A stretch of 64,000 nt of DNA from a virus: the IMG/VR virus record IMGVR_UViG_3300045125_000077; one strand, 5' to 3'. The notes under the pieces were generated by a model, which saw only the letters and a program-made list of their open reading frames with translations, did no database searches and was not told where the DNA came from. Both the position numbers and the translations under genes were made by a program. Shown here one piece after another: positions 291 through 47,414 of this stretch. Within the stretch, counting starts at the first letter, position 1; each line of letters starts with the position of its first letter.

Positions 291-3200
291 CTAAGCGCCA
301 AGTTTACTGTTCCGGCTGGGGTTAAATCGATCTCGTCCCCCCCGAGGCATTATCGGTCCACCTGGTTACGTAGTAAGTGTAGAACTGCCGTCATTTCGTA
401 TACCTATAGTATCTGTTATATAAATACCACCAAGTTGTCGTTGGTTTTGAACCATCCCATACCAGCAACTTGTTTCCACCTGTGTCTCCTACTGAGAATT
501 TTCCATCATTGGCAAGATACCATCCCAGTCTCCAGTATCAGTATGCGGTCATTCCAGCATAAGCGTTACGCAGCACTGCTCAATGTTATATTACCTCCCG
601 TTAGTGTAGTTGCGCCAATTGTCCAGCCGCTGCCGATTGTTCCGGCCAGTTGAGGTTAATGTTTCCGTTAGAACGCAAACTTCCGGAATACATCCACCGC
701 CCATGCTTAGGGTTCCGCCGGCATATTGTATTTCCGCTTATTGTCACCCAGCTTATAGTGCCGCCAGTAATAGGAATCTCCCTGTAATAGACCTCGTAGC
801 GGCAATTTGTGTCCCAGTTATTGTCCCTGCTGCCATATTTGCGGCAGTTGTAGTACCTGCGGCAATTTCAGTGTGTTGCAGTTGTAGCACCCGGCAGGCA
901 ACTCTTCCGGCGGTAATAGACCCTGCTCCACCTCTGCCGGCAGATATAGTTCCGGCAGTTATTGCGCTCGCATTAAGATTTCTTACATACGCCGAATCCA
1001 GATATACTCCACCGCCATCTACCGTGAATGGAACTATTGTTCCAGTTCCATTTGATTGTACAATTTTAAATTCGTCTACTTGTACAATAAATGAGGAAGA
1101 TGTTGATGCATCGGCGGCGAGCCTAAAACCAGCCACTCTGTTTCCAGCAGTTACTTTAACTGTATATTGAGATTTTAAATCTACTATTGAACCTGATATA
1201 GCAGCCGTCGTTGTTTGGCTTGTTGATACACTCGCTGCTAAAGATGAACTATTAATTACAACACTTGAAGATAGCGCTGTTAATAGACTTGCCAAAGAAC
1301 CAGACGCACTTGAGAAAGCAAACGCTATTTGTCCAATACTTGATGCAACATGATGCGCTATCCCAGTAAAGCTGGAAGATATTATAGTTATGGTCTGAGC
1401 AAGTGACGAACTAAAATCTACATTTGTAGTATTTACTTGAGCAATAGATGCCGCCAGAAGAACTGTTTGTACGTATGCTGGACGACAGTGTGGTAATGCT
1501 TTGCGCCAAGGACGAGCTAAACGTGGTGTTGGTCGTATTAGTCTGGGTAATGGAAGACGCCAATGACGCACTGTTGGTACTGACGCTAGCTGACAGAGTG
1601 GTGATGCTCTGCGCCAGAGACGAACTGAACGTGACGTTGGTCGTGTCAGTTCTGGTGATGGACGCAGCCAGCGACGCACTGTTGGTACGTATGCTGGCCG
1701 ACAGTGTGGTTATGCTCTGCGCCAACGAGGAACTAAACGTGACGTTGGTCGTGTCAGTTCTGGTAATAGACGCTGCCAGAGAAGAACTGTTGGTACTGAC
1801 GCTAGCCGACAACGTGGTGATGCTCTGCGCCAGAGACGGAGCTAAACGTGACGTTGGTCGTATCTGTGCGAGTAATAGACGCCGCTAGTGATGAGCTATT
1901 ACCGTCGATGCGCGACGACAGTGTGGTAATGCTTTGCGCCAAGAGACGAGCTAAACGTGGTGTTGGTCGTATTAGTCTGGGTAATGGAAGACGCCAATGA
2001 CGCACTGTTGGTACTGACGCTAGCTGACAGAGTGGTGATGCTTTGCGCCAGAGACGAACTGAACGTGACGTTGGTCGTGTCAGTTCTGGTGATGGACGCA
2101 GCCAGCGACGCACTGTTGGTACGTATGCTGGCCGATAGTGTGGTTATGCTCTGCGCCAACGAGGAACTAAACGTGACGTTGGTCGTGTCAGTTCTTCGGT
2201 AACAGACGCTGCCAGAGAAGAACTGTTGGTACTGACGCTAGCCGACAACGTGGTGATGCTCTGCGCCAGAGACGAGCTAAACGTGACGTTGGTCGTATCT
2301 GTGCGAGTAATAGACGCCGCTAGTGATGAGCTATTACCGTCGATGCGCGACGACAGTGTGGTAATGCTTTGCGCCAGAGATGAGCTAAACGTAGTGTTGG
2401 TCGTATTAGTCTGGGTAATGGAAGACGCCAATGACGCACTGTTGGTACTGACGCTAGCTGACAGAGTGGTGATGCTTTGCGCCAGAGACGAACTAAACGT
2501 GACGTTGGTCGTGTCAGTTCTGGTAATAGACGCTGCCAGAGAAGAACTGTTGGTACTGACGCTAGCCGACAACGTGGTGATGCTCTGCGCCAGAGACGAG
2601 CTAAACGTGACGTTGGTCGTATCTGTGCGAGTAATAGACGCCGCTAGTGATGAGCTATTACCGTCGATGCGCGACGACAGTGTGGTAATGCTTTGCGCCA
2701 GAGATGAGCTAAACGTAGTGTTGGTCGTATTAGTCTGGGTAATGGAAGACGCCAATGACGCACTGTTGGTACTGACGCTAGCTGACAGAGTGGTGATGCT
2801 TTGCGCCAGAGACGAACTAAACGTGACGTTGGTCGTGTCAGTTCTGGTAATAGACGCTGCCAGAGAAGAACTGTTGGTACTGACGCTAGCCGACAACGTG
2901 GTGATGCTCTGCGCCAGAGACGAGCTAAACGTGACGTTGGTCGTATCTGTGCGAGTAATAGACGCCGCTAGTGATGAGCTATTACCGTCGATGCGCGACG
3001 ACAGTGTGGTAATGCTTTGCGCCAGAGGATGAGCTAAACGTGGTGTTGGTCGTATTAGTCTGGGTAATGGAAGACGCCAATGACGCACTGTTGGTACTGA
3101 CGCTAGCTGACAGAGTGGTGATGCTTTGCGCCAGAGACGAACTAAACGTGACGTTGGTCGTGTCAGTTCTGGTAATAGACGCTGCCAGAGAAGAACTGTT

Positions 3201-12200: not shown

Positions 12201-14651
12201 AGAAGCCAGTCTTGACGCTAATGATGCACTTGCATTAGTGAATGCAAAATCTGTATATGTTACTGCCGCAGATAATGAACTGCTAAACGTGTCAAAATTT
12301 GCATTAAGTTCATTCGACCGTTGGGCTAATGAAGAACTGGTGTTTGAAAATACAGTATCTACACTTGAAATTGTTGCAGAAATAGAAGCACTTGCTAGAT
12401 TTATACTAGAAGATAATGTAGTAGACCTTGTAGCAAGAGAAGAACTTAAATCTGTAAAGGTTTGTTCCACAGTGCTTATTGTAGCCAACAGTGAAGCACT
12501 GGTATTTACAAAACTTGAAGAAAGAATAGTTGCTCTTGATGCCAATGAAGAACTAAATGTTACAAATGTTTCTTCGGTCGTGGATATAGATGCTGCCAAT
12601 GAAGCACTTTGAGAATTAACATTAGAATCAAGAATAGAAACTCTGGAAGCAAGGGATGAAGAATTATCTACCAAAGTTTGCTCAATCGTGGTTATAGAAG
12701 CAGCAAGTGAGGCACTATCTATGAATACCGCGCTGGACGAAAGTTGGGACAGGCGTTGTGCCAAAGATGAGCTTGCATTAGTAAATGCAAAATCTGCGCT
12801 GGTTATTACCGAAGAAAACGACGAACTGAATTCATATACACTAGCAGATACTATTGTAGTTCTAGAAGCAAAGGATGATGACAGTGTAGTTATTGCTGTC
12901 TCATTTTCTGATATAAATGAAGAAAACGAAGAACTTACTCCATTTATACTAGAATTGATTGATACCAACCTTTGCGCCAAAGAAGCTGATGTGTCAGTGA
13001 GTGTGGTGGAAGATTCAGATATTGACGCCGCGATAGAAGCACTTGCATTTTCTATATTTGAAGACAACGTAGAACTTCTTTGTGCAGAGAAGAAGAAGTA
13101 GTTACAAATGTTTCATCCAATGAAGCGATTGTCGCAGAAATTGAAGAGCTCGCGGTAGTAATATCAGATGATAAAGTTGATATTTTTGTGCAAGAGACGC
13201 CGATGCGTCTGTGAAAGTAGTATCAGCGGTGGAAATTCTAGACGCTAATGATTGGCTGGTATTTGAAAAACTTGCTTCTAGAAGCTGCGTTCTTTCCACC
13301 AAAGAAGAGGAAACTGTAACAAATGCCGTATCTGCATTTTGTATTAATGCCGCAATCGATGCGCTATTTTCATTGAAATTTACCGCAGCAGCTATTGTAG
13401 TTATTCTTCCAGACAGAGATGACGATGCGTCAACAAATGTAATGTTATTGTCTGATATAGAAGATGCAAGAGACGAGCTTGCGTTAGAAAGTGAACTTCT
13501 AAGCTCATCTATTGTTAGTGCAGAAGATGCGCTGGTTGTAGTAAAAGAATCTCTTACAGATTTTACGCTAGAATCAAGAGAACCGGATACATTTGTAAAT
13601 GACGTGGACAATTCCACAATTTGGGTAGCCGCCGAAGAACTAAAAGTTGTCAGCGTCGATGAAAGTTGAGTTATTGTTGCCGCCAACGATGCGCTATCCA
13701 AAGAACCAGACCCAGCTATATACGAAGAAAGGTTTTCTACTTTTGCTGCCAAAGAAGAACTTGCGTTTATAAAAGTATTATATGTTGTATTTATTGATGC
13801 AGCGAGCGACGCACTATTAAAATTCGCAGTAGAACCAATTGTATCAATTCGAGTTGCAATAGATTCGCTGGTAGTAGTTAATGTAGCTTCTATAGTTTTT
13901 ATAGAACTTGCCAATGAACTACTATTTGATGTTAAAGACGACCCAAGGCTGTTTATATTTGCCGCAAACGACGAAGAACTATCCGAAAACGCCCCGTAAA
14001 CAGAAGTTATATATGCCGCAGTAGATGCGGAGTTCTGCAATAGTGTTTCACTAAATGCTCCATAACTCGCAGATAAAGATGCAGATACTTGATTCAACCT
14101 ATTTACAACTGAAGAAGATACGCTAGTCAATGAGCTATTCAACGAGTTTACTCTCGTACTAAGAGAACTCGATGCAGCAGTTAATACTCTTACATTAGTA
14201 GAAATGGAAGAAGAAAATAAACCAAGTTCTTGTCTTACTACATCAATCGATTCTGTTGGAAGAGATATTATTGGTCCACCACCTTGTTGTATTGTAAGCG
14301 TGCCATTATTTTGGTCAGTCAATTTAACCGACCCTACATACAAACTCCCAGAAGTAACGTATATATCCCGCCATCTACGAGAAGGGCTACCCAAATCATA
14401 CATGTTGTCAGTTTGGGGAATTATACTCTGATTTACTTGACTTAAATCAATAGAGCCACTTACAAATGAACCACTACCACCAGAGCTTAAATATGGTAAA
14501 CTGGACCACGATGCTGTTCCATTTCCTATTTTAAGTTTTCCGGTATCTAGTTCAAACCCAGCTTCGCCGGATATAAAGTAGGATTTACTGCTGTCCAATT
14601 TGCAGCAGTATCACGCTTTAACTGAATTCTGGAAATTCTAATTGTTGCCAT
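291..14651 (-). CDS. giant tail fibre/tip protein (~4,780 aa, split by indels): Mtd_N-like N-terminus, ~4,300-aa Ser/Thr/Ala repeat coiled coil, DUF1983/TipJ-like C-terminal domain followed by AGTIT-type repeats
   Basis: ATG at 14651 reads MATIRISRIQLKRDTAANWTAVNP, then after a 1-nt shift SGEAGFELDTGKLKIGNGTASWSSLPY (Mtd_N motif). ORFs 13102-14598, 10302-13067, 7276-8298, 2982-7130 and 2144-3088 carry the same repeat. ORF 753-1679 has QYTVKVTAGNRVAGFRLAAD...FIVQVDEFKIV...PFTVDGGGVYLDSAYV (DUF1983-like). The stop at 291 is inferred by hand translation. Confidence 0.8.
1400..13100. repeat. nested coding tandem repeat: 54-bp half unit, 108-bp (36-aa) unit, 324-bp (108-aa) super-unit, interrupted by degenerate AT-richer blocks
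   Basis: Unit SSSLAQSITTLSSRIDGN/SSSLAASITRTDTTNVTF. The 60-nt lines starting at 3301 and 4921 are identical (offset 1620 = 5x324); the same line recurs at 6001 (offset 1080 = 3x324+108). Confidence 0.97.
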
Positions 14652-44561: not shown

Positions 44562-46787
44562 TTATGGACCATAACGTATGATGATTCTTACATTACTTGG
44601 TGCTGAAATACCTGTAACAGTAACAAGTGCTGAACTACTGTCCGCTGAACTAGTCATTCCATCAAAGGTACGTGTGGCGACAACTTTGTATGTTCCACCA
44701 GTATCTATTACGACTGGCGATAGAGTGTATGTCGATAATGTAGCACCAGATATAGCCACATTATTTTTATACCATTGATATGATATTGTACCTGCTCCGG
44801 AATCTGTAACAGGCGGCGCAGGAGTTGAGGACACGCCGCTTATATCCTGAAATCCGGTCGTTCCTCCATTAATGAGCGTACTGTATGATAATGGTGTTAA
44901 TGAACCATTGGCTGTGTTTACTGTATACCACTGACCATTATCAAAGGATTGACCATACAACGTTGAACCGGCTGGACCAAATGCGATCTGAAGCCTGCCT
45001 ATTATCGGAGAACCAACCGTGCCTATATTGTTGGCAGCTATAGTGCCACTTAACGGACCAGACGGCAGAGTCAGATTATAAAACATAGAACCATTGGAAA
45101 CAGTGGCATATAATGTACCATTACTAGTAATGGCTATGTCTCCAATATAATTGTTGTTTGTTGTAGGTATACCGCCCGTAAGCGTAGCGGACGAAATGCC
45201 ATTAGGAATCATTGTAGGAGTTCCTGACCCATCATATTGTAATGCAACTCGTACCAGTGTATGTGCTCAGTATAATATACCAATAAGCATTATTCCAATA
45301 TGCTCCGTTATCCGGTCGGCTGGTGGTCAATTGCCCCAAATTGATTGGCGTAGAATTGGCAGTTTGGTTCCAATACCACAGAGACGCCAGACCACTTCCA
45401 CTTGGATTAGGTGCCGCAAAAAATACTTGACCTCGGGTAGCATCAAACGCTATTCCGTTTATTGCGTTTGTTGATGTAGCACCTACGAGAGTAGAACACA
45501 TCTCGCACAGCCCTCTTTGTTCCAGTATCGCTGATTTCATAAATATTGTTGTCTGTACCAACAGTATAATAATACACCGATACTGATGCGAAGGATGACA
45601 GTGTAAGTGTATTTCCAAACTCAACACTTGTAGCAACAGGCTGAACGGTAAAGATAGGTGCCTTTAATGTTCTAACAACGTTTACTGTCGCTGTATTGCT
45701 GTCTGTAAAACTGGATACACCATCTATAGTACTGGTTGCTCTAAGTTTATACGCACCAGAGTCTGCGCTGGCGGCGGTACTCACGAGTATATAATCTAGA
45801 AGTTGCTCCTGTTATAATAACATCATCTTTGTACCATTGATATGTTGGAGTTGGTGTACCAGTAGCCAACCCAGATAATGTAAATGATTGATTGAGGTCA
45901 ATGGACACAGAGGATGGTTGAGCAGTAAATACTGGTGCCGCAAGTGTTCTAACTACGGTTATTGTTACTATATTACTATCAACTGAACTAGATGCTCCAT
46001 TTAGTGTATTGGTGGCAACAACCTTATAATCGCCGCCATTGGTACTAATAGCAGAACTTACGGTATATGATGTAGATGTGGCTCCAGTTATAGCGACGTT
46101 GTCTTTATACCATTGGTATGTTGGAGTCGGAGTGCCGGTCGCCAGTGCCGATAGTGTAAATGACTGTGTAAGATTTACTGTTGCGGCGACGGGTTGCGTA
46201 GTAAATGTGGGCGGCACCAAAACTTCTATAACAGTAACTGCTACCGCATTGCTATCCGTAGAAACTACTGTTCCGCTAACAGTATTACTTGCTGATACTT
46301 TGTATGTGCCCGCATCAGCAAGAACTGCCGATGATACTGTATATGTAGCAGATGTTGCACCTGATATAGCAACATTATTTTTAAACCATTGATATGTTGG
46401 TGGAGAGTCGCCCGTGGCGAGAGATGATAGTGTAAAAGATTGGCCGACAGATGCGTTAGTAGCAACTGGCTGTAGTGTAAAACCGGTGGATTGACCACAC
46501 TTAAATTTGCAATATTTGAAACACTATTTCCTAACGAGTTACTAACTTCTACAGTATAAGCGGCGGCATCTGATATTGGTAACATTCGCTAACACATACG
46601 ATATAGACGTTGCACCTGCAATATTCGTTCCCCCTTTTTCCATTGATATGTAAACGGGGCTGTTCCGCTGGCGGTAACATCAAAGGTGACAGTCTGACCA
46701 ACTTTAGCAACCGGATTAACATCTTGAGCATATCCCATACTCGCATAATGCAAGTATATAAAAAAGTATCTTGATATAGTTCTTCAT
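44562..46787 (-). CDS. secreted tandem immunoglobulin (I-set-like) domain protein with an inserted beta-propeller (~740 aa, frameshifted)
   Basis: Signal-peptide-like MKNYIKILFYILAL...YA-QD; five Ig repeats (P.FT.QP...FTLS..ATG.P.PTYQWYK...I.GATS..Y.V......GDY.VVA.N); propeller with GIAFD, GDIAIT, QIAFGP and GFQDISG. Confidence 0.8.
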
Positions 46788-46826: not shown

Positions 46827-46859
46827 AAAAAAACAACCCCACATTTCTGCGGGGTTGTT
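46827..46859 (-). terminator. intrinsic terminator
   Basis: 12-bp stem AACAACCCCGCA-GAAA-TGTGGGGTTGTT followed by a T run. Confidence 0.9.
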
Positions 46860-46918
46860 AGGGGTGACTTATTCAGCTACCCTCCACCAGTCTCTATCGA
46901 GACAATATAACCATTAAG
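46827..46918 (-). ncRNA. candidate ~90-nt small RNA (two hairpins plus terminator)
   Basis: Own promoter TTGACA(46947-52)-N16-TATTAT(46925-30); hairpins GTCTC-GATA-GAGAC and GGGTAGCT-GAATA-AGTCACCC; ends in a strong terminator; the only ORF is 6 codons long. Confidence 0.5.
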
Positions 46919-46958
46919 AATGCAATAATAGACTATTTGATATGTTTGTCAAGCTCTA

Positions 46959-47414
46959 TTATAGCAGCTTAATTTTAGTTGGTTTGGCTTCTTCTATTTT
47001 TACACGAGGCAATGTAACTTTCAATGTTCCATTTGTAAAGTCAGCTTTTATTTTATTTTTGCATCAATACCTTCACCAACGCTGAACGAGCGAGTGAAGC
47101 TGGAACGCTTTATTTCTTTATGAAATATAACGACCTTTTGACTCATTGACCGATTCAGGTGCTTGTTTCTTTCCACCACGAATAACAAGCGTATCACCTT
47201 CTAGTTCAACCGAAACATCTTCTTTTGCTAATCCAGCAAGGTCCGCTTCTAGTTCATATTTGTCGCTATATTCTACAACATCAACTTTTGGATAGCTGAC
47301 TTTGTTGTATGTTCCAGTGTATGGAGTTACGCCGAAACTTCCGAAAACATCGTCGAATAGACGATCAAATGGGGTGAGAAACTCATCCCGTGTATATCTG
47401 CTTAATGTACTCAT
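46959..47414 (-). CDS. small heat shock protein (Hsp20/alpha-crystallin)
   Basis: YPKVDVVE..YELEADLAGLAKEDVSVELEGDTLVIRG...EIKRSSFTRSFS...ADFTNGTLKVTLP; one frameshift. Confidence 0.93.

Follow-up and report, generated by a model that had tools for sequence, protein, structure and literature searches.

To our knowledge, the RNAs that read the 3' ends of tRNAs are the cis-acting T-boxes, RNase P and the ribosome. In flexizymes and in the L15 loop of RNase P, a GGU that pairs with RCCA holds the tRNA 3' end. The UGGN of a T-box pairs with NCCA, and in its antiterminator or antisequestrator a UGGU at a helix end is complementary to the ACCA of uncharged tRNA (PMC4695836). Inhibition of tmRNA by an RNA that consists of the TLD only, of the kind found in phage DS6A, has been described (PMC4131195), and the small TLD-only tmRNA of this mycobacteriophage has been proposed as an inhibitor of host tmRNA (PMC4131195, PMC11915505). 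G3.U70 and A73 are identity elements for alanine (PMC3968760).

The element described here lies in a 64,000-nucleotide stretch of viral DNA (the window; IMG/VR virus record IMGVR_UViG_3300045125_000077), which contains a single copy of it. All of its parts are on the minus strand, within a putative RNA of ~92 nt (about 46918-46827, with +1 placed near 46918). A sigma-70-type promoter (46952-46925, 11/12 match) indeed begins, as the preliminary description had claimed, right after the stop of an upstream hsp20 gene (46959..47414, minus strand; TAA at 46961-46959), six bases past it, with TTGACA at 46952-46947, a 16-nt spacer and TATTAT at 46930-46925; the TTGACA is kept in most stand-alone relatives. 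The other parts listed there, namely the hairpin GUCUC-GAUA-GAGAC (46903-46890), the linker UGGUGGA, a second hairpin and a 12-bp terminator with a GAAA loop, are likewise all present on this strand, but two points had been missed: the first hairpin belongs to a pseudoknot, as its stem 2, and the module occurs far outside the hsp20 locus. The 5' leader (46909..46914) starts with (AAA)GGUU(AU), which is conserved in the clade copies and absent from those in tRNA clusters and tmRNAs. It is followed by the H-type pseudoknot (46890..46907), in which stem 1 (UAUU, 46907-46904, paired with the loop GAUA) is marginal in the window copy and stem 2 is GUCUC/GAGAC, and by the invariant single-stranded linker (46883..46889). 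Hairpin P2 (46862..46882) has a nearly invariant foot of two G-C pairs, above which pairs and loop vary and covary, with one A.C and one G.U among the pairs in the window. An unpaired C and then mostly U (46860..46861) separate P2 from the intrinsic terminator (46827..46859; stem 46859-46832, U-run to 46827), the sequence of which differs among relatives while its pairing is maintained. The downstream Ig-domain gene (44562..46787, minus strand) differs among relatives and, like hsp20, provides context only; the TTGACA attributed to it is present (46823-46818), but it is followed by a weak -10 (CAATAT), for which no promoter was called. In agreement with the earlier statement that there is no meaningful ORF, none is conserved in the unit of relatives. 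The hsp20 gene is frameshifted in the window assembly (147-150 aa in relatives), as are most genes between 40000 and 54000, among them the Ig, HD and glycosyltransferase genes, a pattern that errors of a long-read assembly could explain.

Folding of the whole unit gave a z of -4.3, whereas the unit minus its terminator gave only -1.6, so that the single window sequence without terminator is not beyond chance and the proof of the element's reality lies in its conservation. Clade loci were fetched by the hsp20 protein, and more distant copies were added via the upstream HD-type gene. The unit was found in 39 of the 44 protein-selected loci, in 24 distinct versions that all (24/24) carry the exact UGGUGGA; of the other five loci, three stop short of it, and no unit is seen in the two others, which are more distant. 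In hsp20-fetched loci it follows hsp20, or dnaK where dnaK intervenes, and five kinds of gene in all lie upstream of it (hsp20, dnaK, groEL, the HD gene and the Ig gene). One locus (L068) has two copies, of which the second, after the Ig gene, has its own promoter. Because the upstream genes vary and L068 has two copies, the unit is a mobile RNA gene and more than an hsp20 UTR. No terminator lies between hsp20 and the module, and L003, L005, L013 and L067 lack a separate promoter, so the module may also end the hsp20 or dnaK mRNA. The preliminary description had proposed a phage sRNA of an unrecognised family, to be given up if there were neither expression nor structural conservation in relatives. 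Structure is conserved, with covarying pairs, and the unit, which brings its own promoter and terminator, changes location without hsp20; judged from these sequences, it almost certainly represents a phage non-coding RNA family. The promoter start in the window (46947-46962) is identical to that of the second L068 copy (about 2430-2450, minus strand) and both copies share the GUCUC/GAGAC stem, which suggests exchange between paralogous copies.

Structure was analysed with descriptor scripts instead of a covariance model because MAFFT misaligns the variable pseudoknot; since stems were chosen per sequence and thus pair by construction, decoy and swap controls were run. The core of the module is a free-sequence H-type pseudoknot, then the invariant 7-nt UGGUGGA, then a nearly invariant hairpin foot (G-C, G-C, unpaired C), with only about 12 fixed nucleotides. 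A helix of at least 5 bp abuts the linker in 34 of 35 non-redundant members, compared with 13 of 63 chance pattern matches used as decoys. The first hairpin is wholly variable in sequence, yet it ends 0-1 nt ahead of UGG in 34/35. Its loop pairs with the strand directly upstream (at least 3 Watson-Crick pairs in 29/35), which makes the pseudoknot; the stem-1 pairing total was 120, against 98.8 +/- 5.6 after upstream strands were swapped among members, and none of 1000 swaps reached the observed value. Stem 1 comprises 3-6 bp in relatives and covaries, for example GGU/ACC in Menderavirus versus CGU/ACG in L127 and XacN1. Among 46 distinct P2 hairpins, pair 1 is G-C in all and pair 2 in 44, whereas pair 3 covaries (G-C 39, A-U 3, U-A 2, C-G 1, G-U 1); pairs 3-4 covary while the opposed C stays. 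This C follows the stem in 45/46, with U as the next base in 40/46; several search patterns fixed it, but it also holds in protein-selected and tmRNA-selected copies. When the GGA of the linker was left free in the search, 22 matches had GGA versus 17 spread over various other triplets, and those 17, none of them with tRNAs, were all judged to be chance.

The module is a stand-alone gene in a jumbo-phage clade; unrelated phages (Menderavirus, X1, XacN1, DLP_6) carry it in their tRNA clusters, and 4-5 phage tmRNAs contain it. Pattern scans found it in the tRNA clusters of L061, L126/L131, L127/L132 and L130, and at the pk3/pk4 position of phage tmRNAs in L105, L128 and L219/L240. L126 corresponds to Stenotrophomonas phage Moby; in all Menderaviruses listed, the module lies between tRNA genes. 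The tmRNA-internal copies are those of L105, L128, L240 and Phass-1, with phi40:1 probable. The search patterns behind most non-clade members already specify part of the motif; in a set of 18 cultured phages selected solely because they have a tmRNA end, the module was clear in X1, XacN1, DLP_6 and Phass-1, with phi40:1 and Tunturi_5 as probable cases. In every such context it is in sense orientation with the tRNAs or tmRNA, which fixes the strand. An exact 19-mer of the element had no match in viral contigs, BLASTN of the window element against cultured phages gave none, and a GTDB scan with the strict P2 pattern gave 63 matches, chance-like or coding and none in a tmRNA. Candidates in L136, P1048 and CcrPW were ambiguous and were excluded; those of Lactococcus phage P1048 (L406 1-110) and CcrPW (L445 about 300-360) are degenerate module-like sequences just upstream of a tmRNA or in a tRNA cluster. 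A 42-kb phage contig of 62% GC (L124, 7955, plus strand) has a clear module at a locus with no tRNA and no terminator after it. In L126 (645-680), L127 (1815-1850), L130, L061 and L444, the tRNA-cluster module is followed by a second H-type pseudoknot instead of a terminator. Near the module, L061 encodes a 115-nt tRNA-Leu-like RNA (1623-1737) and L127 a 95-nt tRNA-Ile (1028-1122), with enlarged anticodon or variable regions.

UGGUGGA is the exact reverse complement of UCCACCA, the 3' end (70-76) of tRNA-Ala and tmRNA. In the fetched loci, the UCCA(CCA) end was present in 23/23 tmRNAs and 5/5 tRNA-Ala and in none of 60 other tRNAs. Some bacterial tRNA-Tyr may also have a UCCACCA end. No linker complement of at least 7 nt was conserved at one site in the 16S and 23S RNAs sampled. 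The likeness extends beyond the linker: the unpaired C faces the last A of the linker, and this A/C opposition mirrors the G3.U70 identity pair, such that strand exchange at the very place of the opposed A and C would turn G3.U70 into A-U70 and C-G3. G4-C69, present in 20/23 tmRNAs, has its mirror in the first P2 pair. L313 extends the match to a 12-nt complement of a common tmRNA end, and Cellulophaga phi40:1 reads UGGUGGAGCU, matching the sole Bacteroidota tmRNA end sampled (L284). With nearest-neighbour models, the junction energy of alanine ends was -2.2 to -2.7 kcal/mol, against -0.2 to -2.2 for most other tRNAs, and one tRNA-Gln scores better. With every alanine end (28/28), the junction came out narrowly ahead of the alternative structures evaluated, and unconstrained cofolding showed no alanine selectivity. 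Because pseudoknots and junction stacking are poorly handled, such energy models neither support nor exclude binding, which is the chief weakness of the proposal. We lean towards the module binding alanine-acceptor ends, with a weak predicted energy; that it has no second anchor comparable to the stem I of T-boxes counts against this.

The comparison with T-boxes is accordingly one of parts. Both have a UGGN complementary to NCCA beside a helix. However, the module has no stem I with specifier codon and T-loops, no T-box sequence and no Rfam match, and stand-alone copies mostly have only 15-30 nt ahead of the pseudoknot. Its UGGU sits between a pseudoknot and a separate hairpin and not in the bulge of an antiterminator overlapping a terminator; the flanks pair inconsistently and the terminator strand is free. 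Its 7-nt match reaches the 3-70 identity pair, and it is phage-borne, lacks a regulated downstream gene and apparently acts in trans. Membership in the T-box family thus fails; if the module works, it would do so by analogy with the half of a T-box that reads the tRNA 3' end. Flexizymes and the L15 loop of RNase P also use GGU in this way, but the module has no catalytic core and its match is longer and alanine-specific. It resembles the pk3-pk4 region of tmRNA (RF00023) in its equal-size H-type pseudoknot and, in 4-5 phage tmRNAs, in its position, whereas linker and P2 are absent from all 26 bacterial tmRNAs, and the window copy, in which ARAGORN found no tRNA-like domain or tag frame, is not a tmRNA. 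The DS6A RNA is a sense mimic thought to titrate SmpB, whereas the module is an antisense mirror of the acceptor end. CsrB/RsmZ sponges are also small terminator-ended RNAs containing GGA, but they have several looped ANGGA sites, which CsrA needs, whereas here one unlooped GUGGA lies in the linker and the loops vary freely; the CsrA sponge suggested earlier is thus not supported, nor is the antitoxin mimic, since nothing resembles the repeat array of a ToxI-like type III antitoxin (at most two tandem units in L236, L242 and L249). A retroelement primer-binding site finds no counterpart, with no reverse transcriptase (PF00078) in five carriers, three of them complete. K-turn, HDV/theta, twister and SAM-I were dropped by eye because conserved positions or strand order did not fit. 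In Rfam 15, the check recommended by the preliminary description, no family reached the gathering threshold, the best hit (24 bits versus 55) being terminator-driven. The main text of Fremin et al., on 10,006 candidate viral structured RNAs, does not contain the motif (PMC10690425), and our literature search found no description of a UGGUGGA module family. The family is thus new with respect to Rfam and to the literature searched.

The reading that we narrowly favour is that the module is a trans-acting trap for free 3' ends of uncharged alanine-accepting RNAs (tmRNA and tRNA-Ala), working through a T-box-like toehold followed by strand exchange, with host tmRNA as the most plausible target. 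The architecture, invariance, exact complementarity and contexts from which it is built are observed; the steps themselves are proposed from sequence. The phage RNA, protected from nucleases, would capture a free alanine-acceptor end, UGGU pairing with ACCA-3' and the new helix stacking on the pseudoknot stem as for the UGGN of T-boxes, so that charged ends would be excluded. The GGA of the linker would then invade acceptor pairs 1-72 to 3-70 and the freed G3 would pair with the unpaired C, so that G3.U70 and A.C would become two Watson-Crick pairs in a four-way junction. With a G4-C69 target, this junction could migrate into P2.

As for purpose, we tentatively rank first, while holding it to be unlikely in absolute terms, that recharging of host tmRNA may be blocked so that ribosome rescue passes to the tmRNA of the phage. 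Every complete carrier checked encodes its own tmRNA. A tmRNA and many tRNAs, yet no SmpB, NusG or reverse transcriptase, are encoded by G036 (a complete relative of 297 kb), G037 and Moby; SmpB, the NusG family (PF02357) and PF00078 are absent from five carriers. The carriers' own tmRNA has C4-G69 in 8/12 cases versus 1/12 non-carriers (Fisher 0.005, or 0.02 minus Tunturi_5; kinship uncorrected). Silencing of host tmRNA is favoured because this swapped pair would stop migration into P2, and the TLD-only RNA sets a precedent for such silencing (PMC4131195). The prediction that a C4-G69 tmRNA implies the module had one probable success (Tunturi_5) and one failure (QDWS359, C4-G69 with no module). 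On the other side, the own tmRNA ends of Moby, DLP_6, L128 and phi40:1 and the tRNA-Ala ends of X1, XacN1 and DLP_6 are fully matched, which weakens a host-only purpose. For the same reason a protective role is possible, for instance against CCA-tail-cutting nucleases (PMC12851939), and a shield or chaperone of alanine-acceptor ends, among them those of the phage itself, that counters nucleases or toxins acting on the 3' end ranks second, with a lower probability. Trapping of tRNA-Ala would be a cost to phage translation too. The complete picture, in which a widespread phage RNA reads G3.U70 by strand exchange and traps uncharged host tmRNA (and tRNA-Ala) while a swapped 4-69 pair gives phage tmRNAs a partial escape, would make it a natural trans-acting anti-tRNA aptamer sometimes housed inside the phage's own tmRNA; we regard it as plausible but somewhat doubtful.

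Two observations concern the tmRNA genes themselves. The clade tmRNAs (L381, L382, 1501-1894) have C4-G69, a long tag of 25 aa starting AKRNLAK and a UGGUGCUCUACCA loop in the pk4 region. Menderavirus, X1, XacN1, DLP_6 and L132 have permuted two-piece tmRNA genes (L383 1559-1947, L132 6607-7251, L401, L408, L411), several of them unannotated or under hypothetical ORFs; the module is separate in these phages and lies inside several one-piece phage tmRNAs.

Of the competing explanations, the one that fares best, though we consider it rather unlikely, is that the module acts on a conserved host protein, as its binding site or as a sponge (for example for ribosomal protein S1, an RNase or the ribosome surface met by the tmRNA pseudoknot ring), and that the alanine complementarity is incidental. 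S1 contacts the tmRNA pseudoknot ring (PMC3968760), a pseudoknot with a single strand sits at the pk3/pk4 position of phage tmRNAs, the tRNA-cluster module with its second pseudoknot looks by eye like an excised pk3-pk4 piece, and GGUGGAG also occurs in 16S near position 945. Yet the module is absent from 26 bacterial tmRNAs, a single site per RNA is unusual for a sponge, and the 7/7 match to a unique 3' end, its start exactly at the helix end and the A/C mirror would all have to be coincidence.

The suggestion, made earlier, that the module is a Shine-Dalgarno decoy, retaining 30S subunits by pairing with the 16S 3' tail, would account for the nearly invariant GGAGG, which complements the CCUCC of that tail, CACCUCC being common to tmRNA and 16S ends. 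It leaves the invariant UGGU and the unpaired C unexplained, however; most members would form just 5 bp, two of the five GGAGG bases are paired in P2 and phi40:1 has GGAGC, and we consider it improbable. A small-molecule aptamer or ribozyme with the linker folded on the P2 foot as its core, marginally less probable still, would fit the compact invariant core amid variable helices, and self-cleaving RNAs are known near phage tRNAs; but Rfam matches none even at E 10, only about 12 nucleotides are fixed and cleavage within a tmRNA would be destructive.

It is very improbable that the module is a transcription signal. Hairpin, 11 nt and U/G give the geometry of a class I pause, which could serve terminator read-through, and TGGTGGAGGGTG presumably resembles the RfaH ops site. 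The ops consensus, GGCGGTAGnnTG, is unmatched; positions -3 to +1 vary (L013, L305, L313, Phass-1), five carrier records have no NusG-family gene, mature-tmRNA copies have no terminator and downstream genes have their own promoters. Equally improbable, and already largely refuted, is that it is a mere structured hsp20 3' UTR, an outcome that the preliminary description had itself foreseen, or a DNA feature (for instance an att site or a tRNA-Ala remnant read from its other strand): the missing terminator after hsp20, the plus strand's minihelix ending in CCACCA with a G.U pair and the A.C oppositions at P2 pair 5 in six variants are outweighed by the five upstream genes, the own-promoter copy in L068, the constant sense orientation in tRNA and tmRNA contexts, the lack of pairs 1-72 and 2-71 in the plus-strand helix and a minus strand in which G.U pairs outnumber A.C.

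If the proposed capture of alanine-acceptor ends is true, a free phage RNA that reads the tRNA 3' end and takes its amino-acid specificity from the acceptor stem would be a regulator of a new kind and would offer a handle on the phages' reason for carrying tmRNA and on a phage counter to CCA-tail-attacking defences, for which no counter-measure is known (PMC12851939). The module is present in cultured phages of Stenotrophomonas and Xanthomonas and is thus directly testable; should the target prove wrong, a real family shared by unrelated phages and lacking from Rfam would still stand.

Downstream of the module, next to it or near it, several relatives (L122, L133, L249 and L312) have a gene that by motif alone looks like one for a CCA-adding enzyme or poly(A) polymerase. 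In L236 (about 13290-13400), L242 (about 680-770) and L249 (about 690-765), all on the plus strand, a second unit with a pseudoknot, UGGU and a GC-footed hairpin lies upstream; its UGG is able to pair in cis with a CCAG strand that is also stem 1 of the downstream pseudoknot, so this unit is possibly a duplicated module of other tRNA specificity (UGGUGC), or a switch.
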